A stretch of DNA of 64,000 bases from Eubacteriales bacterium. GTDB lineage: Bacteria; Bacillota; Clostridia; Oscillospirales; CAG-272. Each line of letters opens with the position of its first letter. Within the stretch, counting starts at the first letter, position 1. Of the stretch, positions 2,536 to 12,711 are shown one piece after another. Where the stretch lies: the NCBI GenBank assembly GCA_045597145.1, contig JAZODU010000069.1:8599-72598 (forward strand). Reading direction: 5' to 3'. Under the pieces are notes generated by a model. It saw only the letters and a list, made by a program, of their open reading frames with translations. It had not been told where the DNA came from and made no database searches. The translations under genes were made by a program, and so were the position numbers.

Positions 2536-3732
2536 TCAATCCCCGTACAAGCAACGGATCAGGCGAAATGCCTGCTCGGCGGTGTTTTTTAAGTTGCGAT
2601 AGGCGTTTTTTGCATCCATGGCATCCTCAAGCGTGCACACGGTGCGCAAAACCGGGAAAAAGGCATCGATGCCGTGCGCGTTGCAAGCCCCCGCGTCCTC
2701 GGCGACACAGCCTGCAAACGCGATCACGGGCTTGCCATAGTGCTTGGCAAGCGAGGCAACGCCGATAGGTGCTTTTCCCATGCAGGTCTGCCCGTCAAGG
2801 CGTCCCTCACCCGTTACCACGACGTCTGCGTCCTTGATAATCTCCTCAAGATGCGTGACGCGCATCACAAGAGAGATGCCCGACTCAAGACGCGCGTTCA
2901 GATAGGTCAGAAAGGCAAAGCCCATGCCGCCGGCCGCACCCGCGCCGGGGGATTCCGCGAACGCTCGCCCCGTGGTGTCCGCGCTGAGCTTGGCGTAACG
3001 ATCAAGACACGCGTCCATGTCCGCGATCATCTCGGGAGTGGCACCCTTTTGCGACCCGAACACCGCGCTGCAGCCGCGCTCACCGCATAAAGGATTGGTC
3101 ACGTCGCACGCGACGAAAAATTCACATTCCGCAAGGGCTTCAATCGCACCGCCGCAATCGATCTGCGAGAGGTGCGCAAGCCCGCGGGCACCATGCGGGA
3201 TCTCGTTTCCCGCGGCATCCCGAAAAGAAAATCCCAGTGCCTGCAGCATGCCGACGCCGCCGTCGTTGGTGGCACTGCCGCCAATACCGACGATGAACGT
3301 CCGACAGTTGTTTTTCTCTATGGCGTGCGCGATCAATTCGCCCACGCCATAGGTCGTGGTGACGCGCGGGTCGCGCCGTGCGGCAGGAATGAGCGTGATC
3401 CCTGCCGCCGCAGACATTTCAATAATCGCCGTGCGCGTATCGGGAAGCACGCCGTACACGGCTTCCACACGCTCCCCCAAGGGGCCCGACACCCACGCGC
3501 GGCAAAGCTGACCGCCCATAGCAGCTGCCAATGCCTCGACGGTACCCTCGCCGCCGTCTGCCAAGGGGCAGACGACCGTTTCTGCGTCGGGGACGGCTGC
3601 CCCGATCCCCTCGGCAACCGCGCGCCCCGCCTCCAAGGAGGACACGCTGCCCTTAAACGAATCTATCGCGATCGCTACCTTCATAGATTGTTCTTTTTTC
3701 TTCTCGAGCAAATCAAAAAATTCCACAAACAT
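2536..3732 (-). CDS. glxK: glycerate kinase
   Basis: Glycerate kinase family pattern throughout (MKVAIAIDSFKGS, GGSATNDGG, VVTGEGRLDGQT). Start set at ATG 3732, preceded by AAGGAGA. Alternative starts are 3684 (MKVAIAID) and 3765. Confidence 0.85.
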   Translation of the reverse strand: MFVEFFDLLEKKKEQSMKVAIAIDSFKGSVSSLEAGRAVAEGIGAAVPDAETVVCPLADGGEGTVEALAAAMGGQLCRAWVSGPLGERVEAVYGVLPDTRTAIIEMSAAAGITLIPAARRDPRVTTTYGVGELIAHAIEKNNCRTFIVGIGGSATNDGGVGMLQALGFSFRDAAGNEIPHGARGLAHLSQIDCGGAIEALAECEFFVACDVTNPLCGERGCSAVFGSQKGATPEMIADMDACLDRYAKLSADTTGRAFAESPGAGAAGGMGFAFLTYLNARLESGISLVMRVTHLEEIIKDADVVVTGEGRLDGQTCMGKAPIGVASLAKHYGKPVIAFAGCVAEDAGACNAHGIDAFFPVLRTVCTLEDAMDAKNAYRNLKNTAEQAFRLIRCLYGD

Positions 3733-3766
3733 AATTCTCCTTTGTTTTTTTGATACGTTCATCATT

Positions 3767-3816
3767 ACTGCTGTAAAATGAAATTTTGAGTTTCGCTCAA
3801 AAGTAACATTTGTCCT
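3767..3816. repeat. island repeat unit, copy A
   Basis: ACTGCTGTAAAATGAAATTTTGAGTTTCGCTCAAAAGTAACATTTGTCCT, with internal hairpin TTTTGAG-TTTCG-CTCAAAA. Confidence 0.8.
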
Positions 3817-4166
3817 TAACTGTTCCCCTTTGCGGTGGTGATGGAGGCGATGAGTCTACGTCTGATCGAACCGCATTTGTTTCGCAAATCTTTATACGTG
3901 ACCTCGTCCATTTTCCCTTTTCTGAATATCAATTCGAGCCAATATTCCGTTTCAGAACACTCTTTCAAAGAGATTTCCAATTTATTTATAAAATCCGCTT
4001 TGCTTTGGGCGTATTTTGCTTCGTGAATGTTTGCTCCGATTGACGACGAGGAGCGAACAATCTGGTTGACATAAACCGAACAGCCCTTTATTTCATCACA
4101 AAGATCAGAAATTTGAATTGCAAATTCGATTGCATCTTCACGGAGTTGGTTCTCGTTATCGTTCAT
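3816..4166 (-). CDS. four-helix bundle protein (23S rRNA intervening-sequence protein family)
   Basis: 116 aa from MNDNENQL (ATG 4166, RBS AAAGGAG). Family pattern IVRSSSSIGANIHEAKYAQSKADFINKLEISLKECSETEYWLEL. The longer track ORF reaching 4418 is rejected. Confidence 0.75.
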   Translation of the reverse strand: MNDNENQLREDAIEFAIQISDLCDEIKGCSVYVNQIVRSSSSIGANIHEAKYAQSKADFINKLEISLKECSETEYWLELIFRKGKMDEVTYKDLRNKCGSIRRRLIASITTAKGNS

Positions 4167-4189
4167 TTGATAAAACTCCTTTCTTTTTG

Positions 4190-4415
4190 TCGATATGTTC
4201 GCCATTGGCGAACTCGATATATGGTCGCTTTGCGACCATTCGATATATTTCTCGCTTCGCTCGAAATTCGATATGTTGCCTGCGGCAACGAGGGTCGATT
4301 GCACCGCACTAAAGTAACGTCTCTCGCTTTGCCCACAGGGCAAAGCATATCGAGCGCGAAGTGTCATATCGAACGCAAATCGTATATCGAACGACGCGTC
4401 AGCGGCGCATATCGA
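4190..4415. repeat. dyad array of eight YATATCGAR motifs with interspersed short hairpins
   Basis: TCGATAT occurs at 4190, 4214, 4240 and 4268. ATATCGA occurs at 4347, 4366, 4384 and 4409. Hairpins lie at 4198-4212, 4222-4238, 4276-4288 and 4327-4345. Confidence 0.7.
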
Positions 4416-4433
4416 CATCGAATCCGCGGGTCA

Positions 4434-4555
4434 AAGACACGACGGATTCGACGTGGGGTCAAGAGTACAAAAGGTATATTTTTGTGTCAAAAACGGGGGT
4501 TGTAAGTCCAAAAAGTCTCAAAAGCATAGGGGGAAAGTAACATTTGTCCCTAATT
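4434..4555. repeat. degenerate rlmCD 3'-end copy plus a ~100-bp arm (junction repeat R1)
   Basis: Minus strand 4455->4435 reads HVESVVS. The arm 4456-4555 aligns with 4771-4872. Confidence 0.65.
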
Positions 4556-4630
4556 TTTAAGTGATGCTTGTGAACATAAACTGCTGTAAAACGAACTTTT
4601 GAGTTTTGATCGAAAGTCACTTTTGTCCCT
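4535..4630. repeat. island repeat unit, copy B (permuted full unit)
   Basis: AAAGTAACATTTGTCCCTAATTTTTAAGTGATGCTTGTGAACATA is followed by AACTGCTGTAAAACGAACTTTTGAGTTTTGATCGAAAGTCACTTTTGTCCCT. Confidence 0.8.
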
Positions 4631-4734
4631 GTGCAAAATCAGGGCATTTTATGATTTTGAACACAGATTTTTGAAATTTTACCTCAAAACCACTCAAAAA
4701 GGCTTGATTTTGTCTATTTTAAGGCGATTTTGAC

Positions 4735-4770
4735 TTATTTTCTCGTCAGACAAACGACACTTTCGACGTG
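4735..4770 (-). pseudogene. orphan duplicate of the last 11 codons and stop of rlmCD
   Basis: Minus strand reads HVESVVCLTRK*, against HVESVVCLSRK* at the real gene end. 4747-4770 is identical to 11356-11379 (24/24 nt). Confidence 0.85.
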
Positions 4771-4872
4771 GGTCAAGAGAGCAAAAGGTCTCAAAATCGG
4801 TCAAAAACGGGGATTGTAAAACCAAAAAGTCCTCAAACCATAGGTGGAAAGTAACATTTGTCCCTGATTTTT
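4771..4872. repeat. ~100-bp arm homologous to 4456-4555 (junction repeat R2), ending in a partial repeat unit
   Basis: Shared blocks are GGTCAAGAG, CAAAAGGT, TCAAAAACGGGG, CCAAAAAGT and GAAAGTAACATTTGTCCCT. Confidence 0.7.
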
Positions 4873-4903
4873 CAAAAAAATCTAAAAAGTTACCTTTAAC
4901 CCC

Positions 4904-4932
4904 TGGACATTTATAAAATTTTATGTTATAAT
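4904..4932 (+). promoter_or_regulatory. sigma-A-type promoter of the m5C MTase gene
   Basis: TGGACA, 17-nt spacer, TGtTATAAT (extended -10 at 4924-4932). This favours the ATG at 4963 over 4933. Confidence 0.55.
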
Positions 4933-4962
4933 ATGAGCATAAAAAATGCAGGGGGAAATGTT

Positions 4963-6279
4963 ATGCCTTATGCAATAGATTTATTTTGCGGAGCGGGTGG
5001 ATGTTCCGAAGGATTAATCCAAGCAGGTTTTCACATATTATTCAGCTCCGATATAAGCGATATGGTGGAAAAAACCTATCGCCATAGACACGAACAACTC
5101 GGTCTCATTCAAGGAAAAAATACTTGGTTTCAACGTGAAGATATTCGCAATCTAAAAGGCAAAGATATAGAAAGATATATTTCGCAGTTGGAGATATTCC
5201 AAGGCGAACCGATTCCTGAAATTGATTTGTTGATCGGTGGTCCCAGTTGTCAGGGCTTTTCTCGTGCAGGCCGTCGGGATAAATCCGATCCACGAAATAT
5301 GCTTTTCGGGGAATATGTAAGAGTGGTGAGCGAAATAAAGCCCAAATACATTGTTCTTGAAAATGTCGAAGGATTCGTAGATATGCGATTTGTCGGGTAC
5401 AAAGGTATCACGGGAATCCAGTATCCCGATGGTAGTGTCACACCTAAAATTTTAAGAAGTGAATTAAGTGAAATTGGCTATGAAACACTTGAACCTAAAA
5501 TACTGAATGCTGCGGACTATGGTGTACCCCAAAGAAGAAATCGCGTCATTTTTATTGGCTTTAGAAAAGGATTGACACCGCCTAAATATCCAGAACCTAT
5601 TATTAATTCTGCCGATTATTTAACATTGACAGAAGCCATAGGTGATTTGATTGTCAGCGACGAAATACGAGCGAGAGTAAACAAGCAAGCCTCTCAGTAT
5701 CAACTTGATAGCCAAAGAGGTCGAACTCCGAGTGCTAACGGTATGCCTATAAAGTCAACTACTCCTAAAAATACAGAGTTATCCAAACAAACCCCTATCG
5801 TCATTGAAAGATTTTCTTTGTTTGAAGAGGGTGAAACAGGAACTATGTTGAAGCGAAGAATTTTGGAAAAAGGGATTGATTTAACAGGCAAAAATGCTTT
5901 AATCACACTCTGTGCTAAAAGTTTTGCGATGTCTAACGAAGCTGTTATTACGCTCTTCAGAGAGGCTCGTGCTACGATCACTCAAATAGAAGTTTTGCTC
6001 ACAAAAAAGAACATTCGCCAAAGATGGGCTTCAAATCAGCCTTCTGCAACGATAGTCACAATAGCCGACGATTATATCAGCCCGTGGGAAGATAGGACTT
6101 TCAGTGTGCGCGAAATGGCTCGTTGTCAATCTTTTGATGATTCGTTTGAATTTTTGGGAAAACGAACAACAGGCGGTTTGCAACGCCGAGTAGAAGTTCC
6201 GCAATACACTCAAGTTGGAAATGCGGTGCCACCGTTGCTTGCAAAAGCAGTTGCATTGGAAATTAAAAAAGTTTTATAA
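4963..6279 (+). CDS. DNA (cytosine-5)-methyltransferase (R-M module 1)
   Basis: Motif I DLFCGAGG. Motif IV GGPSCQGFS. Motif VI ENVEG. Motif VIII QRRNRVIFIG. Motif X TQVGNAVPPLLA. RBS GGGGGA lies before ATG 4963. Confidence 0.9.
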   Translation: MPYAIDLFCGAGGCSEGLIQAGFHILFSSDISDMVEKTYRHRHEQLGLIQGKNTWFQREDIRNLKGKDIERYISQLEIFQGEPIPEIDLLIGGPSCQGFSRAGRRDKSDPRNMLFGEYVRVVSEIKPKYIVLENVEGFVDMRFVGYKGITGIQYPDGSVTPKILRSELSEIGYETLEPKILNAADYGVPQRRNRVIFIGFRKGLTPPKYPEPIINSADYLTLTEAIGDLIVSDEIRARVNKQASQYQLDSQRGRTPSANGMPIKSTTPKNTELSKQTPIVIERFSLFEEGETGTMLKRRILEKGIDLTGKNALITLCAKSFAMSNEAVITLFREARATITQIEVLLTKKNIRQRWASNQPSATIVTIADDYISPWEDRTFSVREMARCQSFDDSFEFLGKRTTGGLQRRVEVPQYTQVGNAVPPLLAKAVALEIKKVL

Positions 6280-6313
6280 CTCTTGACGGGGTACTTATAT
6301 AGTACCCCTTTTT

Positions 6314-7522
6314 CTATGATTTCGTCAAGTCATATTCAATAGGAGTTCCTAAAAGCAACGGCAAATCTTGCGGTTTCATTTTAAAAAGCATACCGTGGTC
6401 TCGCCATTTACCTTCGGGGGTGTAGTGTGCAGCAATGTCGACTGTAATCTTATCCGTTTCCAACAGAGGTGCTATTAAAGAAGTGTTCGGATGTTTGGTG
6501 TGTAGTACTTTATCATATCGAAAATATTCAATGCTATTATGAATTTCCGAGACTGCTTTTACCCAAAATGTTTCGTGGTGTTTAACAAGCAAAGTTTGTG
6601 CAAGACCACTGATATACCAAGCGGAAACATACCGTCTTATTTCTTCTTGTTGATACATTATTTTTAGTTTGTCATCGTTCGCCGTAACCTCTAAAACAAG
6701 GTCATATGCGTTTATATGAGTCACCTTTAATGTATCGTATAACTGTAGTCGTGCGACCGTTGTTCCTTTTGGGATTTGTATTTTTCCGTATGCATCCACG
6801 ATTTGTCTATAGGTCATTCCATCATCGGGAACTTTGGTAAACAATGTAGACTTGGTTGAATGCCTAATTACACCGTCACGCGACAAGCGAGAGGTCTTTA
6901 ACTCTATGCCCTTGTAATCAGGCGTTTTTGCATTATTCCTTGAAATACCTAATGCGTGTTCAAGCGTATCTCCTACACCGGGATCTCCGCGAGTAATCGA
7001 AGGAATAAAACCGCGATTATGTATATTCTGTATCTTGTTGAGCAATTCGCGAGCAACCACATTGTCTTGATGGACCGACTCCAGTAGAATATCATATACG
7101 AATGCTTTTTTGAATAAAGATTCTACAATTTTGGCATCAGAAAGGTTTATTACATATATTTTTTTGTTGGCTATAATGAGTGCTAAAAGGTTACAAGGAG
7201 AACAATAGTGGGTAAGTTTACTAAACCAAATTCTCGGGTCGCCCTTTTTTGTTAAAGGACGATAAAGGGAGGCAACGGTTTCTTGTACTTTATCGGGATA
7301 TACAAAATAACTTTGAACTAAAGTCTTGGCGTTAGGACCTTGATTTTGTGCCTCGTAATCGTGTATATCTTTATTCTTTAAAAGTTCGCGCACAGGAGCT
7401 GTTGCATCCATTATAGATTTACCATAACCAGTAGGCGTAGGTACGAGAAAAGCAACTGAAACACCCGTATCTGCAAAAATGGGAAGGAATTGTTCTATAT
7501 CGGTATCGGACATTAGTAACAT
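6314..7522 (-). CDS. type II restriction endonuclease, MvaI/BcnI (MutH/Sau3AI-like) catalytic domain with a ~165-aa N-terminal extension
   Basis: GDPGVGDTLEHALGISRNNAKTPDYKGIELKT matches the (G)xGxxxExxLG...PDxxxIE-x-K core. The C-terminal VDIAAHY...WRDHGMLFKM resembles the MvaI VDIRIGAY...HDHGTAFRI block, as I recall it. The gene is convergent with the MTase. Confidence 0.65.
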   Translation of the reverse strand: MLLMSDTDIEQFLPIFADTGVSVAFLVPTPTGYGKSIMDATAPVRELLKNKDIHDYEAQNQGPNAKTLVQSYFVYPDKVQETVASLYRPLTKKGDPRIWFSKLTHYCSPCNLLALIIANKKIYVINLSDAKIVESLFKKAFVYDILLESVHQDNVVARELLNKIQNIHNRGFIPSITRGDPGVGDTLEHALGISRNNAKTPDYKGIELKTSRLSRDGVIRHSTKSTLFTKVPDDGMTYRQIVDAYGKIQIPKGTTVARLQLYDTLKVTHINAYDLVLEVTANDDKLKIMYQQEEIRRYVSAWYISGLAQTLLVKHHETFWVKAVSEIHNSIEYFRYDKVLHTKHPNTSLIAPLLETDKITVDIAAHYTPEGKWRDHGMLFKMKPQDLPLLLGTPIEYDLTKS

Positions 7523-7561
7523 AGTTTAAAACTCCTTTGTTTTTCTCGATATGTTACCCCT

Positions 7562-7640
7562 AACTGCTGCAAAATGTACTTTCGAGTTTCGCTCAAAAGC
7601 AACATTTTTCCCTAATTTTTAAGTGGTGCTTGTGAACATA
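7562..7640. repeat. island repeat unit, copy C (full)
   Basis: AACTGCTGCAAAATGTACTTTCGAGTTTCGCTCAAAAGCAACATTTTTCCCTAATTTTTAAGTGGTGCTTGTGAACATA. Confidence 0.8.
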
Positions 7641-7647
7641 TCAGAGA

Positions 7648-8916
7648 TTACATTCCGTTATAGTTCTCCCATCTCCACCGCAAGAACTCTTTATTTGTGA
7701 AATCGGGAATCACAATACGAGGAGGAATCAATGCACCGTAATCCATTCTCGCCCTCGAAGATAGTTCAACAATTCCTGTTTCTGAAATACGTAAATGTCC
7801 TGTGTCGAATAAAGTATGTATGTCGGTTCTCATTGCAAATCCGTTCGCAACAGTATCTTCACCATTATACTTGAAGGGTTTTATGTGTGCAGCTTCTAAA
7901 ACCTCGGGCATCGTAACATTTGTAATTACACAACGTTGACAAGCCTTAAGTACTTCTCTTCTAAAGTTTGCTTGATTCGGTCTTGCCGTTCTCATTGTTT
8001 GAACACGTTTTCTTTCAACTTCAGATGTAACTTCTGTTGCTCGAATTTGAGCTAACGCAGATATAAGCGATTCGTCTTTGGGCTTTTGAGCAATGATTGC
8101 AGAAATTTCATCTAGTATAACGGCACTAATAGCATATTTTTCAGCCATCCTTGTGTTGCCGCCTATAAGATTGATATATCCGTAATTTGAAAGGAACAAC
8201 AAGTATTCTCGTGCTATACGCATGTCATTGGCTTCGGGGCAACAATTGGGCCATCCAATTAGAGATATTTCACCTGCCCTATACCAAAGTATGAAATTAA
8301 CATAGTCTTCTATTTCCGCATGGCATCCCGACAATGGAATAATCACTTTTATCAGTTCTTCGGTGGTGATATAACCCTGCCCTAATTCTTGAAGCTTCAT
8401 TTGAATTTCAAGGATTAGCCTTAGCGGATATAAGACCAAATTGTGTTCAAGCCAACGAGCACATTCCTGCTGACTTTGAATTTGGGCGTTAGGCAATTTA
8501 AAGGTTTGAACTGTTATTGCTGCAAACTCGGTTTGCGAAATATCATGGTCGGCGATCCTTCTACCAAATTCGGTTAATTGGATTTGCCCCGAGCGTCCGC
8601 CCGGAGGAATTAATCCCAAGGCTCTCCAATATTGTCCTGAATTTCTAATTAAATTCCGTTCGCCGGCCCTTCTTTCTAAATCCACGCCGACGGAATCTTT
8701 TATGTCATTAGATAAATCTATCAGTTCTTTTGCAAATTCATCTGAACTGTATTTCACGCCCAAAGGCTCTAACTTTCGCATTCTGAACAAAACGCCAAGC
8801 AATACAACGGGGTCATTCAATCCCTCTGTACATTGTAGGCATGCCCATTTCCATTTAAATTCGGGAAAGGGCTTTACTGGTACATAATTTTTAGGTAACA
8901 TATTATTTTTCCTCAA
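7648..8916 (-). CDS. HNH nuclease, putative restriction endonuclease of R-M module 2
   Basis: C-terminal HNH block: FRREVLKACQRCVITNV...LEAAHIKPF...NGFAMRTDIHTLFDTGHL. It is the last gene of the C-M-M-R operon and overlaps the MTase stop by 14 nt. I cannot assign the N-terminal ~300 aa. Confidence 0.7.
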   Translation of the reverse strand: MRKNNMLPKNYVPVKPFPEFKWKWACLQCTEGLNDPVVLLGVLFRMRKLEPLGVKYSSDEFAKELIDLSNDIKDSVGVDLERRAGERNLIRNSGQYWRALGLIPPGGRSGQIQLTEFGRRIADHDISQTEFAAITVQTFKLPNAQIQSQQECARWLEHNLVLYPLRLILEIQMKLQELGQGYITTEELIKVIIPLSGCHAEIEDYVNFILWYRAGEISLIGWPNCCPEANDMRIAREYLLFLSNYGYINLIGGNTRMAEKYAISAVILDEISAIIAQKPKDESLISALAQIRATEVTSEVERKRVQTMRTARPNQANFRREVLKACQRCVITNVTMPEVLEAAHIKPFKYNGEDTVANGFAMRTDIHTLFDTGHLRISETGIVELSSRARMDYGALIPPRIVIPDFTNKEFLRWRWENYNGM

Positions 8917-9829
8917 AATCGTTAAACATACGAGCTACAGCGTATCCCAATAGCGGGGGAACAGCATTACCAATTTGTCTATATACGGACGAACGATTGC
9001 CCGTAAACTCAAATCGCAAAGGAAAACTTTGCACTGTAGCAAGCTCCCTACAAGACATTCTTCGTGCTGCGTTGGGATGCGGCAAAATAACAACTCCACC
9101 TTTGCTGTCTCCTCTTGCAGTAACAGTAGGTGCGGGTTTTTCAGGATCAAGTGGACGGTGACCCAAATAACCGTTAAACTCTAATTTGTATTTTGAATAC
9201 TCATGATTCGGTAAATCGTTAGGCTGGTCGGGGTCAGGAATATTGGACAATGCCGATAAAACGCTTACCCACTTTGGTAAACCGTTACTACCGTTTTTGT
9301 CGTGTGTAGGCGACGGAAATACATATTCAAAATCCAAATCCGAACGAACACCCACAATAATCACTCTCTGTCGAGTCTGCGGAACCCCAAAATCAGCGGC
9401 GTTTAACACTTTCGCACAGACGTTATAGCCCAAATCGCGAAAATCAGAGAGAATCATCTCAAACACTTTTCCGCCTAACAAATTCGTTAATCCCTTGACA
9501 TTTTCAGCCAAGAAAAATTTTGGCTTTTTAGCATCAATGACACGAATCAGCTGTTTATACAATGCGTTTCTTGTGTCGTCCGCATGACGTTTGGTGTTTG
9601 CAACCGAAAAACCCTGACAAGGAAATCCCCCAATTACAATATCACAATTCGGAATATCTGCCTCATTGATTTTAGATATATCTTCGCAAACAATATGGTC
9701 TCCAATATTCTTTCTATATGTGTTTACCGCATCTTCGTATAAATCATTTGCCCAAATTATAGTGTGACCGGCCATTATAAAACCCAAGTCTAGACCGCCA
9801 GCACCGCTAAACAAAGATACTGCTTTCAT
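8903..9829 (-). CDS. DNA (cytosine-5)-methyltransferase (module 2, second copy)
   Basis: Motifs SLFSGAGGLDLG, GGFPCQGFS, ENVKG, QTRQRVIIVG, RRMSCRELATVQSFP and YRQIGNAVPP. Confidence 0.9.
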   Translation of the reverse strand: MKAVSLFSGAGGLDLGFIMAGHTIIWANDLYEDAVNTYRKNIGDHIVCEDISKINEADIPNCDIVIGGFPCQGFSVANTKRHADDTRNALYKQLIRVIDAKKPKFFLAENVKGLTNLLGGKVFEMILSDFRDLGYNVCAKVLNAADFGVPQTRQRVIIVGVRSDLDFEYVFPSPTHDKNGSNGLPKWVSVLSALSNIPDPDQPNDLPNHEYSKYKLEFNGYLGHRPLDPEKPAPTVTARGDSKGGVVILPHPNAARRMSCRELATVQSFPLRFEFTGNRSSVYRQIGNAVPPLLGYAVARMFNDFEEK

Positions 9830-10761
9830 CTGATTACTTCCTTTTCCAATCTTATCAATTCTTCACCTAGTAATTTTGCAAATTTGACGGGAACAGCATT
9901 GCCAATTTGCCTATAACAAGCCCCCATCGCTCCAACAAATTCAAAATTTTCCGGAAAGGTTTGAACGCTCGCACTTTCTCGAATTGTTAATCTGCGTGTT
10001 CCATTATAATGTGGTATAGCACAAACTCCGCCTTTCCCATTTCCCCGCGCCAAAATAGTAGGTGATGGCTTGTCAGGCTCTGTCTGTCTATGTCCCGTGA
10101 AATTGCGATACTCAACTTTGTAAGAAGAACAAATATGATTCAATACAGTATGCGTGCTTGCAGGGTCAGGAAAATGATCGATAGCTTCTTTTATCGAAAC
10201 CCATGCAAGAGGACTTCCACTTTTTGAGTGAGTAGGTGTGGGGAAACGAAACAACAATTCTTTCCCTATGTCTGTTCTTTGTCCGATGATAATAACTCTC
10301 TGTCTTGTTTGAGGCACACCATAATCTGCCATATTAACTAAAGTTACAGATGTGATATACCCCGCTTGTTCGAAATCATTGATGATTTGTCGAATTGCCG
10401 TCCCATTACCCAAGCTCAAAATCCCTTTTACATTCTCTGCAATGAAAAACTTAGGTTGCTTAATAAGTATTGTGTTGTAAAAAAATTTATATAGTTGATT
10501 TCTGTCATCGTCAACAGTTCTAAGAAGATTAGCCTGTGAGAATCCCTGACAAGGAAATCCACCAACTACTACATCGGCATCGGGAAGCGTATGAATATCA
10601 ATGTTTTTTATGTCATCACACACTATGTGTTCACCAATATTTTTTTTGTATGTTGCTACGGCATCTTTATCAAAGTCATTAGCCCAAATTACACTATTTC
10701 CTGCTTGAATCAACCCTAAATCCAAACCACCCGCACCACTAAATAAAGATATTATCTTCAT
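9826..10761 (-). CDS. DNA (cytosine-5)-methyltransferase (module 2, first copy)
   Basis: Motifs SLFSGAGGLDLG, GGFPCQGFS, ENVKG, QTRQRVIIIG, RRLTIRESASVQTFP and YRQIGNAVPV. It has a 4-nt overlap with both neighbours. Confidence 0.9.
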   Translation of the reverse strand: MKIISLFSGAGGLDLGLIQAGNSVIWANDFDKDAVATYKKNIGEHIVCDDIKNIDIHTLPDADVVVGGFPCQGFSQANLLRTVDDDRNQLYKFFYNTILIKQPKFFIAENVKGILSLGNGTAIRQIINDFEQAGYITSVTLVNMADYGVPQTRQRVIIIGQRTDIGKELLFRFPTPTHSKSGSPLAWVSIKEAIDHFPDPASTHTVLNHICSSYKVEYRNFTGHRQTEPDKPSPTILARGNGKGGVCAIPHYNGTRRLTIRESASVQTFPENFEFVGAMGACYRQIGNAVPVKFAKLLGEELIRLEKEVIR

Positions 10762-10976
10762 TGCGCTTCTCCTGTTTCTTTAGTTACATCCATAATATCA
10801 TCAAAACTGCATTCTAACGCATTGCAGATGCGGAGCATAATATCCATAGACACAGTTTCATTCTTGCCGAGCTTGGCAAGAGTGGTTGTTGACATATCCG
10901 TTGCAAGTCGCAGATCGGTTTTTGTCATACCCTTATCTATGAGCAATTTCCATAGTTTATTGTAGCTTACTGCCAT
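10758..10976 (-). CDS. XRE-family HTH protein, putative R-M controller (C) protein
   Basis: 72 aa with HTH MTKTDLRLATDMSTTTLAKLGKNE. It is the first gene of the operon, and its stop overlaps the MTase start. Confidence 0.7.
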   Translation of the reverse strand: MAVSYNKLWKLLIDKGMTKTDLRLATDMSTTTLAKLGKNETVSMDIMLRICNALECSFDDIMDVTKETGEAQ

Positions 10977-11008
10977 ATGTAAAACCTCGTGTTTTCAAAG
11001 TTATCTCT

Positions 11009-11037
11009 ATTATAACATATCTGTCCGCGAATTTCAA
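11009..11037 (-). promoter_or_regulatory. sigma-A-type promoter of the C-M-M-R operon
   Basis: Minus strand reads TTGAAA, 17-nt spacer, TGtTATAAT. A GAGG RBS lies before ATG 10976. An AACATATC motif (11014-11021) overlaps the -10 box. Confidence 0.6.
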
Positions 11038-11196
11038 CAAAATATCAGAGAAAACAAATATTTTATGCGTAGATTTTGATACTCAATCGGTGTGTGGAAA
11101 CATATCAAAAGCCATTTTTATCGTTGCATTACTATTTTCAAGGAAAAACGTGCAATTTCAGGTCAAAATAGCCGTTTTTGTTCGATATGTTATACT

Positions 11197-11248
11197 AAAC
11201 TGCTGTATTTTGATTTTTGACCACGGGGTGAAAATCACTTTTGTCCCT
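11197..11248. repeat. island repeat unit, copy D (diverged)
   Basis: AAACTGCTGTATTTTGATTTTTGACCACGGGGTGAAAATCACTTTTGTCCCT, preceded by TTCGATATGTTA at 11181-11192. Confidence 0.7.
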
Positions 11249-11270
11249 ACTTGAAAATTTGACAAAACAC

Positions 11271-11312
11271 AAAAAAGAACAGCCTTTTGACCGAAAAACA
11301 CGCTCAAAAGGC
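11271..11312 (-). terminator. intrinsic terminator of rlmCD
   Basis: Hairpin AGCCTTTTGA...TCAAAAGGCT (11281-11312), followed on the minus strand by a T-run (plus-strand AAAAAAGAAC at 11271-11280). Confidence 0.6.
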
Positions 11313-11343
11313 TGAAAAACGCCCGTTTTAGGGTCAAAATCGC

Positions 11344-12711
11344 TTATTTTCGGGACAGACAAACGACACTTTCGACGTGCCCTGTCCTCGGAAACATATC
11401 CACGGGCGTCACAACCCCAATCTCATACCCCAATTTTCTAAACAGCGCACAATCGCGGGCGAGCGTATCGGGACCGCAGGAAACGTAGACGATGCGCTCA
11501 AAATTCCGCGCCGCAAGGTACTCGATCAGCTCGGGCGTGCTTCCCTTGCGCGGCGGGTCCATGATGACCGTAGCACCCGAAACGTCACCGTGTGCGCTCT
11601 CTGCGCGCTCCAACAGATGCCGTGCATCGGACGCGTCACCGCAATAAAAATAAGCATTCTCAACGCCGTTACGTGCGGCGTTTTCTCTTGCGCGCGCGAC
11701 CGCCACCTCAACGATCTCGATGCCGATCACCCGATCGGCGTTCTTCGCCATGGAAAGCCCGATCGTGCCGATGCCGCAATAAAGATCCAGCACGGTTTCG
11801 CCACCCGTCAGCGCGGCTTTCTCGCGCGCCGTGGCGTAAAGCAGCTCGCACGCGTCGTGATTGACCTGATAAAACGCGCCCGCAGAAATGCAAAAGCGCA
11901 GACCGCACAGGATATCCTCGATCCATTCTCGCCCCGCCAGAAGTCGGTAGTCCTTCCCAAGCACCACGTTGGTGTTTTGCGTGTTGACGTTGAGCATCAC
12001 GCTCTTAACGCCCGAAAATTTTCCGCACAAGCCATCGGCAAGCCGCTCTTCGTTCGGCAAGCTCTTGCCGTTGACCACGAGGCAGACCATGGTCTCACCC
12101 GTCCCCTCGCCCATGCGCAGATAGATGTGGCGCAAAAGCCCCTTACGCGTTTCCTCATCGTACGCTTTGATGCCGTTTTGGTCGCAAAACGCGCATATGT
12201 ACGACAAAATCTCCCCGAACACGGGGGGCTGGAGGCGGCAATCCGTGCACGGCACGACGCGGTGCGTGCCCGTAGCGTAAAAGCCCGCCACCATGCCGCT
12301 CTTGCCGTTTGCCACGGGGTACTGCGCCTTGTTGCGGTAGCCCGTGAGCCGCCCCGTGGAAAGCACGGGATCGACGTGCACGTCAAAAAGCCCCGCCTTG
12401 CGGAAGGCGTTTTCCACGTAGTTGCGCTTAAGCTCCAGCTCGTGCTCGTATTTGACGTTTTTATACACGCAGCCGCCGCATCCGCGCGCCGCGCAAACGT
12501 ACCCGTCCTCGCGCAGGCGCGAGGGGGTACGCATTTTTTCGATCCGTGCGACAAGGTAATTCTTCGTCACCTTGATGATGCGCGCGTCCAATAGGTCGTC
12601 GGTCACGCCGTCGCTCACGAACACGACCTGTCCCTCGGGAGTGTGCGCCACGCCGAAGCCGAGGTTGTTGATCTCCTCGATAGACAGCGTGATAACGTCA
12701 TTCTTTTGCAT
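11344..12711 (-). CDS. rlmCD: 23S rRNA (uracil-5-)-methyltransferase, RumA/RlmCD family
   Basis: 455 aa with an N-terminal TRAM-like domain, a Cys cluster (CAARGCGGCVY) and a C-terminal SAM MTase (LDLYCGIGTIG, DPPRKG). Confidence 0.85.
   Translation of the reverse strand: MQKNDVITLSIEEINNLGFGVAHTPEGQVVFVSDGVTDDLLDARIIKVTKNYLVARIEKMRTPSRLREDGYVCAARGCGGCVYKNVKYEHELELKRNYVENAFRKAGLFDVHVDPVLSTGRLTGYRNKAQYPVANGKSGMVAGFYATGTHRVVPCTDCRLQPPVFGEILSYICAFCDQNGIKAYDEETRKGLLRHIYLRMGEGTGETMVCLVVNGKSLPNEERLADGLCGKFSGVKSVMLNVNTQNTNVVLGKDYRLLAGREWIEDILCGLRFCISAGAFYQVNHDACELLYATAREKAALTGGETVLDLYCGIGTIGLSMAKNADRVIGIEIVEVAVARARENAARNGVENAYFYCGDASDARHLLERAESAHGDVSGATVIMDPPRKGSTPELIEYLAARNFERIVYVSCGPDTLARDCALFRKLGYEIGVVTPVDMFPRTGHVESVVCLSRK

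Follow-up and report, generated by a model that had tools for sequence, protein, structure and literature searches.

We analysed a stretch of 64,000 nucleotides (nt), here called the window, from contig JAZODU010000069.1 of a Eubacteriales bacterium (assembly GCA_045597145.1, hereafter G000; 1.9 Mb in 75 contigs). Our subject is the AT-rich restriction-modification (R-M) island at 3767-11343, between glxK and rlmCD (rumA), together with the repeated sites that divide it. The initial annotation had described a horizontally acquired defence island, put together at the site, with a mobility function that is not encoded locally. An R-M island by itself is ordinary, and the interest of this one lies in the route by which it arrived. 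It consists of cassettes, with a copy of the rlmCD 3' end between one and the next, and rows of such cassettes, differently filled, stand behind rlmCD in other gut Clostridia.

Features of the locus

The features are listed in their order from rlmCD to glxK. MTase stands for methyltransferase, m5C for 5-methylcytosine, ORF for open reading frame and RBS for ribosome-binding site; S, X and C denote a site, a repeat and a controller gene, respectively.

Flank, rlmCD: RumA/RlmD equivalog (TIGR00479, 363 bits, cut-off 184)
11344-11379, minus strand: end of rlmCD, last 11 codons and stop (HVESVVCLSRK-stop); the live attachment site, with its 26-bp core at 11354-11379
11253-11343, minus strand: cassette leader straight after the rlmCD stop, with a terminator-like hairpin (11280-11293) and T-run
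11190-11252, minus strand: X repeat copy D (AGGGACAAAAGTGA...ATACAGCAGT)
11009-11037, minus strand: promoter-like site TTGAAA-17-TG-TATAAT (11/12 match, extended -10) before the C-M1-M2-HNH operon
10758-10976, minus strand: small helix-turn-helix (HTH) controller-type protein of 72 amino acids (aa) (PF13443, 64.6 bits), 98.5% identical to the first R-M cassette gene at locus L076
9826-10761, minus strand: m5C DNA MTase M1 (motifs FSGAG, GFPCQ, ENV, QTRQR)
8903-9829, minus strand: m5C DNA MTase M2, paralogue of M1
7648-8901, minus strand: HNH nuclease with a weak AlwI-like N-terminal region (PF13391, 4.9e-11; PF09491 below cut-off; PADLOC HNH; PDB 6yex, 3.9e-4)
7541-7643, minus strand: X repeat copy C, a chimera of the X hairpin part and a distal S-site extension (X part 7562-7617)
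6314-7522, minus strand: MvaI/BcnI-family restriction endonuclease (PF15515, 221 bits; PDB R.MvaI 2oa9, R.BcnI 2odh)
6288-6308, no strand assigned: terminator-like hairpin between the convergent MTase and nuclease genes
4963-6279, plus strand: system-1 m5C DNA MTase (motifs FCGAG, GGPSC, ENV, QRRNR)
4904-4932: promoter-like site with extended -10 box before the system-1 MTase
4742-4872, minus strand: site S1, with arm 4771-4872 and orphan rlmCD end 4735-4770 (HVESVVCLTRK-stop); nhmmer 91.6 bits
4523-4741, minus strand: empty cassette without an ORF, made of a leader and X copy B (4579-4637)
4428-4558, minus strand: site S2, with arm 4456-4558 and a decayed orphan rlmCD end (HVESVVSLTRGF); nhmmer 80.9 bits
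4186-4427, minus strand: heptamer array (4 TCGATAT and 4 ATATCGA, GC-rich hairpins between), leader of the IVP gene, pairing with the S2 core through its first bases
3816-4166, minus strand: four-helix-bundle protein of the 23S rRNA IVP family (PF05635/TIGR02436), the most widespread cassette of these arrays
3766-3822, minus strand: X repeat copy A, the distal array end, with a cassette-type RBS leader (3733-3765) that now stands before glxK
Flank, glxK: glycerate kinase

Composition and edges of the island

The composition of the island is the most extreme in its genome. Over 3767-11343 the GC content is 0.396, whereas equal-sized segments of the genome average 0.544 (sd 0.032), which corresponds to a z of -4.7. 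For the tetranucleotide distance from the genome mean, z is 6.6, and none of the 214 segments is as deviant in either measure. The sliding GC profile falls from ~0.60 to ~0.39 between ~3650 and ~11350, and the switch is completed within ~100 nt at either edge. GC at third codon positions is 0.29-0.46 in the eight island genes, 0.70 in glxK, 0.75 in rlmCD and 0.72 in the next gene. The computed profiles thus bear out the AT-rich island with abrupt edges and GC-rich flanks that had been noted by eye.

On the glxK side, AT-rich DNA extends ~80 nt inside the annotated glxK ORF, to ~3650. In the region 3650-3765, glxK is preceded by a cassette-type leader and RBS (AACGTATCAAAAAAACAAAGGAG) that resemble those before the IVP and MvaI-like nuclease genes, and it has an AT-rich extension of 16 codons ahead of the usual MKVAIAIDSFKG start. 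A GH20 gene found between the array and glxK in the relative G005, and behind the array in G024, is absent from the window, as is the acetyltransferase gene of G005. The leader before glxK and the absence of these genes point to a deletion that joined the array end to glxK.

Copies of the rlmCD end divide the island

The last 36 nt of rlmCD (11379-11344) are repeated at 4770-4735 and, in decayed form, at 4455-4420. A conserved arm of ~85-100 nt stands ahead of each orphan copy in rlmCD orientation, and arm and copy together make up one S site. The S1 core (4747-4770) is identical to 11356-11379 at 24 of 24 positions, and the two arms, 4771-4872 and 4456-4558, are 82% identical to each other. 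The invariant GA, with which the Glu codon of H-V-E-S-V-V-C-L begins, lies at 11373-11372 in the live gene. The leader at 11253-11343 also recurs behind the cores of many other arrays. Four cassettes follow each other in the window, separated by rlmCD 3'-end copies with the conserved arm, and this agrees with the earlier proposal that the island was assembled on site.

The second repeat, X, is a hairpin-containing element of ~60 nt, AGGGACAAATGTTAC-TTTTGAG-CGAAA-CTCAAAA-TTTCATTTTACAGCAGT, with four copies in the window. Copy C is composite: 7562-7596 matches the hairpin part of copy A at 30 of 35 positions, and 7596-7643 matches 4534-4581 at 42 of 48. Both parental parts contain the motif AGGGACAAATGTTAC. 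The 6.6-kb R-M block therein looks like two R-M cassettes fused through an internal deletion, of which copy C is probably the scar; in the simplest reading, the deletion would have removed the S body, core and leader that stood between the two. The repeat-laden non-coding DNA of the initial annotation is real, and its S and X repeats are confined to this locus in G000. A genome-wide repeat or miniature inverted-repeat transposable element was considered as their source and rejected, as neither motif occurs at a second G000 locus.

The locus and its sites in other genomes

An rlmCD orthologue (55-79% protein identity) is present in most of the 24 congeneric genomes compared, and what stands behind it varies among them. 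G016 has nothing AT-rich there and lacks the canonical core, G018 has the IVP gene alone, and G003, G004 and G014 each have one unrelated AT-rich ORF. In G005 an unknown protein and a SASA esterase are followed by IVP, while G009 has eight gene-end copies, counting the live one, at a spacing of 396-1137 bp. The comparison of the glxK-rlmCD interval that the initial annotation proposed therefore yields empty, IVP-only, differently filled and up to eight-site versions. The adjacency of the two flanking genes is not conserved. glxK lies behind the array in the window, in G005, probably in G022, and in no others, and among the congeners the two genes share a contig in G005 only, with the GH20 and acetyltransferase genes between them.

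A scan for the S core in one genome for each of 185,579 species gave 66 loci, ~60 of them in metagenome-assembled genomes (MAGs) of uncultured gut Clostridia from ruminants and other animals, labelled Oscillospiraceae, Christensenellaceae, Acutalibacteraceae or 'Eubacteriales'. About 60 other uncultured species carry 1-8 S sites each. A metagenome scan added 18 contigs, in which most full-site matches are arrays, situated behind rlmCD wherever that gene is visible. S sites lie behind rlmCD and are co-oriented with it in all 48 loci that show part of the gene, at 32-84% rlmCD identity to the gene of the window. In an even sampling across the order, S occurs in 3 of 401 genomes, from three families, and it is common in the genus of the window. 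The distribution of S is patchy and horizontally spread.

Anatomy of the sites and cassettes

We aligned 99 distinct S sites and 38 distinct live rlmCD ends in one register. The similarity between the two classes starts precisely at CA/YGTNGAR (the slash marks the junction) and extends over 26 bp, CAYGTNGAR-NN-GTCGTKTGTCTSAC, ending in GTCTSAC. To the left of the core the classes are unrelated: the S arm reads ...GAGACCTTTTGGAGTCTTGACC and the gene ...GATATGTTCCCGAGGACGGGG. The 3' end of the S arm reads ...ACCTTTTGGAGTCTTGACCCA/CGT, and the arm contains two direct repeats of ~26 nt each.

The arrays contain 102 complete cassettes of 287-6609 bp (median 692 bp), the largest being the R-M block of the window. 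The longest ORF lies on the rlmCD strand in 98 of the 102. The ORF starts cluster in two zones: 9-22 nt past the core (44 of 96 cases), where an RBS is present and a promoter absent, or ~190-200 nt past the core, behind a module of leader and X with a terminator-like hairpin.

Rows of single-gene cassettes that mostly lack promoters, point the same way, alternate with a repeated site and have no integrase next to them are what a true integron-type system would leave, that is, an array resembling a cluster of attC sites lacking integron-integrases (CALIN), in which a tyrosine recombinase, an unrecognised IntI or the host Xer, acts on the folded single strand of S. G000 does have one Xer-like tyrosine recombinase. 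Single-stranded S, on either strand, folds no better than its shuffles (z from -1.4 to +1.3), however, and it is conserved by sequence, not by structure. No IntI was found, the integron-integrase model TIGR02249 scoring 98.6 bits against a cut-off of 265, and by eye the core does not resemble a dif site. We regard an integron-type system as highly improbable. Folded sites of the attC kind were rejected for want of a significant single-strand fold of S.

Exchange of cassettes between distant hosts

Fifty-five pairs of cassettes from different loci match over at least 70% of their length. Several shared cassettes are 94-96.5% identical, while their host rlmCD genes are just 65-70% identical and their ranks in the arrays differ. 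The same cassette stands at rank 1 in L079, where its left neighbour is the rlmCD coding arm, and at rank 3 in L087, where its left neighbour is an S arm. The identity between the two, 96.5%, starts at CACGTCGAG, covers the cassette and its terminal S arm, and stops inside the next core.

The window itself shares DNA with L076, a locus whose rlmCD is 57% identical in protein sequence. Identity between the two is 50-65% along rlmCD, rises to 90-92% at the core and 96-98% through the C gene, and drops to 42% at the boundary of the C and MTase genes. Behind the same C module, L076 has another MTase and an HpaII-type nuclease, so R-M cassettes also swap internal modules. The extreme composition of the island, together with this 96-98% identical module of leader, promoter and C gene in a distant species, supports its foreign origin, and the horizontal acquisition proposed at the outset gains from both.

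Exchange of this kind could in principle proceed by homologous displacement, in which DNA brought in by transformation or conjugation recombines through the patches formed by the rlmCD end, S, leader and X, and no site-specific enzyme takes part; orphan-module arrays at rhs and cdi loci offer a likeness. Repeats of 26-130 nt suffice for some RecA-dependent exchange, the copy C chimera and the fused R-M block resemble products of short-repeat recombination, and the leader-C module common to different R-M cassettes amounts to modular shuffling inside cassettes. The boundaries between cassettes behave differently. Junctions are base-exact at CA/YGTNGAR in ~140 sites, identity does not spill over into the part of rlmCD that lies upstream of the core, and the junction point coincides with a known serine-integrase crossover (see below). 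In addition, the core is near-invariant at synonymous positions although the rlmCD proteins are just 32-50% identical. Homologous displacement therefore seems an unlikely source of the arrays, and we prefer movement by a site-specific enzyme.

The array core is a serine-integrase attachment core

The island encodes no such enzyme. Its ORFs match no integrase, transposase or relaxase family and no coupling-protein or VirB4 family, and tblastn with three serine recombinases and one tyrosine recombinase as queries gave chance-level matches only against the island. The only PF00589 match (the Xer-like tyrosine recombinase) and the only PF00239 matches (two serine recombinases) of G000 lie on other contigs. 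Family searches, tblastn and these genome-wide locations all uphold the earlier statement that the mobility function is not encoded locally. An integrase resident in G000 was rejected as the mover, because its serine recombinases lack core-like ends, its tyrosine recombinase is Xer-like, and an orthologue of the L102 type described below occurs in 0 of 41 genomes.

The rumA 3' end serves as the specific target for ICEs (integrative and conjugative elements) that bear one large serine recombinase, in streptococci, enterococci, Roseburia and C. difficile (PMC4120198). The vanG and ICE-r elements insert at the GA of a rumA Glu codon, the 11th from last; their serine recombinase gene lies at the right end, fused to rumA 3' codons, the left end of the element supplies the RumA-like tail, and tandem insertions occur (PMC4120198). 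The same arrangement of rumA and serine recombinase is described in PMC4701971. The junction position in the window is the homologue of this published GA site, and all junctions of the arrays lie at CA/YGTN-GA-R.

One array contains an integrase. At the head of L102, an array in a Christensenellaceae MAG, stands a serine recombinase of 597 aa (PF00239, PF07508 and PF13408) whose frame is fused at CACGTGGA, reading ...ACA/CACGTGGAAAGTTTAGTTTGTCTAAC, into a core copy, and four S-bounded cassettes follow. A gene 98% identical to this recombinase is present at L126 (JAZLZD010000002.1), and the match ends after ...CACGT. The suspicion that the L126 integrase sits at an unrelated site was dropped, because the junction read in the other frame gives a RumA-type tail, HVETLVVLERI-stop. 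All five clade members with readable DNA run into CACGTNGA and then into a RumA-type C-terminus in the other frame; besides the L126 tail these read HVETLVCLARKAN-stop, HVETLVVLSHKK..., HVETLVVLSKK... and HVESLVCLTRRS-stop. A junction motif D-T-(R/C/Y)-(R/G)-(D/N) stands where the tails diverge in at least 59 of the best 120 homologues, and for the commonest codons it would correspond to H-x-E-T/S in the +1 frame. Because of the fusion point in L102 and L126 and the RumA-type tails in five of five clade members, the array core is the attachment core of rumA-specific serine integrases.

Elements with rumA-type serine integrases in other gut genomes (L126, L145-L149) are themselves defence islands or mobilisable elements. 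One contains an N6 MTase with ResIII, DUF4062, RES and AIPR genes, another an Eco57I-like R-M system, and a third a relaxase with NikA. Of the four elements seen, L126 and L145 have a small SHOCT-domain gene immediately upstream of the integrase gene.

The complete integrase element inside the L102 array also raises the prospect of a fossil pile-up, in which the segments are remnants of autonomous ICEs, integrative and mobilisable elements (IMEs) or prophages that lost their own rumA integrase, and the S sites are old attR scars. Complete elements are known to insert in tandem at rumA (PMC4120198), and the R-M block of the window bears an internal deletion scar. Remnants of this kind fit poorly with 102 cassettes of 692 bp median length, mostly with one promoterless ORF that starts 9-22 nt past the core. 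The ~85-nt S arm is conserved in ~60 species and is not an integrase pseudogene, since tblastn detected no remnants and its similarity to integrase ends is not significant. Small cassettes turn up again, identical and bounded exactly by S and core, in distant hosts and at different ranks, and the small unit itself must therefore move. Although a pile-up of fossils strikes us as somewhat less improbable than the homologous route, it remains an improbable account, and we return to cassettes that are moved as units.

A model for cassette movement

We consider it probable that the island represents what is currently stored in a site-specific array, which is anchored at the rlmCD 3' end and whose cassettes are moved in trans by rumA-specific serine recombinases. 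As a stack of cassettes at a known landing site of serine integrases, the island would need no recombinase of its own. The mobile unit would carry one S, its ~85-nt arm followed by a 26-bp imitation of the last rlmCD codons. Recombination between S on the free cassette and the live gene end, with the crossover at or beside the invariant GA of the Glu codon, would insert the cassette directly behind rlmCD. The insertion would renew the RlmCD C-terminus with an equivalent one and displace the old end downstream, as an orphan behind an S arm. The new gene end would still be attB-like and the displaced junction still attP-like, so that the acceptor is regenerated and cassettes stack with the newest next to rlmCD. 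The enzyme would most likely be a large rumA-specific serine recombinase supplied by a passing ICE, IME or phage-like element.

Four rounds might account for the window, starting with the IVP cassette and continuing with the empty leader-only cassette, the MvaI-like R-M cassette and the C-M-M-HNH R-M cassette. The last two would later have been fused by a deletion between their shared AGGGACAAATGTTAC motifs. The gradient of decay, from the intact core through the 24/24 identical orphan to the decayed orphan, fits this order, in which S2 would be the oldest junction.

Several points weigh against this model. The rumA-type serine recombinase of the L102 clade is absent from G000 and 40 relatives, where the best match is 37-39% identical, and neither serine recombinase of G000 has a core-like 3' end. 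An integrase stands beside the array in just one of ~90 array loci. The S arm aligned to the integrase's own P arm scores 15.3, against 13.2 for shuffles and up to 19.4 for other gene segments, and the spacing between arm and core in S differs by 3-4 nt from that of the integrase arm. S was not found on viral contigs (IMG/VR). Excision by serine integrases normally needs a directionality factor, and none was identified. The genomes are MAGs, from which mobile elements may be missing or in which they may be mis-binned. The enzyme that reads the S arm may belong to a different subclade, on elements that were not binned into MAGs. The 18 metagenome contigs show no new integrase. A derivation of the S arm from a degenerate integrase 3' coding end was also tried and is unproven, the best alignments matching at 21 of 28 positions and the mean score being no better than in controls.

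More tentatively, these observations could be joined into a wider picture, which we put forward as a possibility rather than as our expectation. Gut Clostridia might have a serine-recombinase counterpart of the integron, whose unit is one gene with a ~110-bp S that imitates both the integrase site and the RumA C-terminus. Since attL resembles attB and attR resembles attP, no directionality factor might be required for stacking, excising and reshuffling cassettes. Read-through from rlmCD might express the small cassettes, with larger ones bringing their own terminator-promoter leader, and the array might serve as a horizontally traded, shared store of defence and accessory genes. The near-ubiquitous IVP cassette, with its heptamer arrays and core-complementary hairpin, might be the regulator or an accessory factor of the system.

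Comparison with known systems

By target and likely enzyme, the array belongs with the rumA-specific serine-integrase elements, which include vanG, ICE-r, the Tn1549/Tn5252-type streptococcal ICEs and the relocated C. difficile CTn5 (PMC4120198, PMC4701971). Both use the same RumA/RlmD target family and the same GA position in a Glu codon ~10 codons before the stop, both occur as tandem insertions, and in both the left end of the insert provides the replacement RumA C-terminus. The known elements add 101-115 foreign codons, whereas array units restore the native 11-codon tail. The units of the window have no integrase and no conjugation or mobilisation genes, a rumA-type integrase being present only in the related L102. 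In general, array units are mostly 0.3-1.5 kb and single-gene, a ~85-nt non-coding arm replaces the integrase 3' end, and arrays reach at least eight sites.

In architecture, the closest analogue is provided by the composite islands of staphylococcal cassette chromosome (SCC) and pseudo-SCC elements at rlmH (orfX). These elements likewise stack on a 23S rRNA methyltransferase gene at its 3' end, with large serine recombinases that act in trans and R-M systems as frequent cargo (PMC13739063; bioRxiv 10.1101/336396). A copy of the gene end marks each junction, and recombinase-less members stand beside recombinase-bearing ones; the array shares these traits as an architectural analogy only. The target gene differs (rlmH versus rlmCD), and the L102 recombinase scores 152 bits on the CcrB model against a cut-off of 900. 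Array cassettes are also far smaller, and strict co-orientation with promoterless ORFs is not a trait of SCC.

Integrons and CALINs, among them sedentary chromosomal integrons in which defence systems are stored, have similar rows of co-oriented single-gene cassettes (PMC8618304; bioRxiv 10.1101/2024.07.02.601686). They also resemble the array in their fixed acceptor, transcription from upstream, defence cargo and cassettes shared between species. The array, in contrast, has no IntI, its sites are conserved in sequence and not folded, its acceptor is the end of a housekeeping gene instead of attI, and its likely enzyme is a serine recombinase instead of a tyrosine recombinase. Lacking IntI and folded attC sites, the array is integron-like in function and layout, yet not an integron.

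Accretion at the 3' ends of protein genes is also known from cis-mobilisable elements (CIMEs), as with ICESt1 and ICESt3 at fda, where att-flanked, integrase-less elements likewise lie beside, or are mobilised by, an autonomous relative. CIMEs differ in that they depend on tyrosine integrases, and each is one large remnant, where the arrays consist of many mini-cassettes that have a conserved site of their own.

Our results tie the rumA 3' end, a hotspot for vancomycin and multidrug-resistance ICEs in streptococci, enterococci and clostridia, to a wider phenomenon. The same position holds rows of tiny integrase-less cassettes with a dedicated conserved site, traded among species of uncultured gut Clostridia, and S and the rlmCD end form a concrete site pair. 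If serine integrases do move these cassettes, the arrays would be an integron-like platform for gene capture that uses a different class of enzyme; integrons have been reported as essentially absent from Firmicutes. Such movement would account for recombinase-less defence islands at the rlmCD end, for the near-invariant last 26 bp of rlmCD across deep divergence, and for the recombination of R-M modules, such as the shared C-gene module.

Cargo of the cassettes

Profile searches (Pfam, TIGR, PADLOC) and PDB matches recovered every gene type that had been named from the sequence alone. All three MTases score above the PF00145 and TIGR00675 cut-offs and have m5C motifs I, IV, VI and VIII. Judged from their genes, system 1 would comprise an m5C MTase and an MvaI/BcnI-type nuclease, and system 2 a controller, two m5C MTases and the HNH nuclease, which is the likely restriction enzyme. 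In both systems the predicted cognate endonuclease adjoins the MTase, as in type II R-M, and both appear to be ordinary type II defence systems with their own promoters. The two putatively strand-specific m5C MTases of system 2 suggest an asymmetric target.

An N-terminal part of the MvaI/BcnI-family nuclease, ~160 aa long, has no family assignment. The real start of the system-1 MTase is probably the ATG at 4963, behind GGGGGA, because the ORF listed from 4933 overlaps its own promoter-like site. Motif IV of this MTase reads GGPSC, where GFPCQ is usual. The best NCBIfam match of the controller-type HTH protein is VanU (87.5 bits, under the cut-off of 150), and the vanG elements are likewise located at rumA; the match is probably mere similarity within the XRE family. 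Among ~100 array loci, the R-M gene bodies have no DNA-level relatives beyond the leader-C module of L076. An Rfam scan of 3000-12500 gave a single chance-level match.

Larger cassettes elsewhere encode a ResIII/DEAD helicase protein, a DUF4062 protein, an Mrr_cat nuclease with homing-endonuclease repeats and a PD-(D/E)XK/DUF4268 protein, and a cassette at L107 has a Bpu10I-type nuclease with C- and MTase-like genes on the opposite strand. Given this cargo of defence and nuclease genes, the label of defence island would seem to apply to large cassettes across the system. The small ones encode short proteins for the most part, several of them apparently membrane-associated, judging by sequence.

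Leaders of the IVP and other cassettes

A heptamer upstream of the IVP genes (4186-4427 in the window; also L031, L032, L034, L037, L039, L043, L076 and others) co-varies perfectly with the IVP lineage. It occurs in 3-6 forward and 2-6 reverse-complement copies, with GC-rich tetraloop hairpins between them, and its lineage-specific forms are TCGATAT, GTGATAT, GTGAAGT, TGAATTG and GCGATAT. This co-variation suggests that the IVP protein may bind its own leader, as DNA or RNA.

In IVP cassettes, the bases right after the 26-bp core complement the core, and the resulting hairpin covers the final codons of rlmCD. It spans 4420-4457 in the window and the first 15-20 nt of every IVP cassette in relatives, and its pairing is preserved by compensatory changes (GTCGTGTGTCTC/ACACGAC, GTCGTTTGTCTC/AAACGAC and GTTTGTCTGAC/GTCAGACAAA).

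Many leaders in other arrays (L037 in G009, L039, L040, L079, L081, L087 and others) have a GC-rich, near-perfect palindrome of ~60-80 nt in place of the AT-rich stretch. These cassettes start ...GTAGGGGC...GCCCCTAC..., and one such palindrome reads GTAGGGGCGAACTGTGTTCGCCCG...CGGGCGAACACAGTTCGCCCCTAC; by its sequence, it looks like a small inserted palindromic element.

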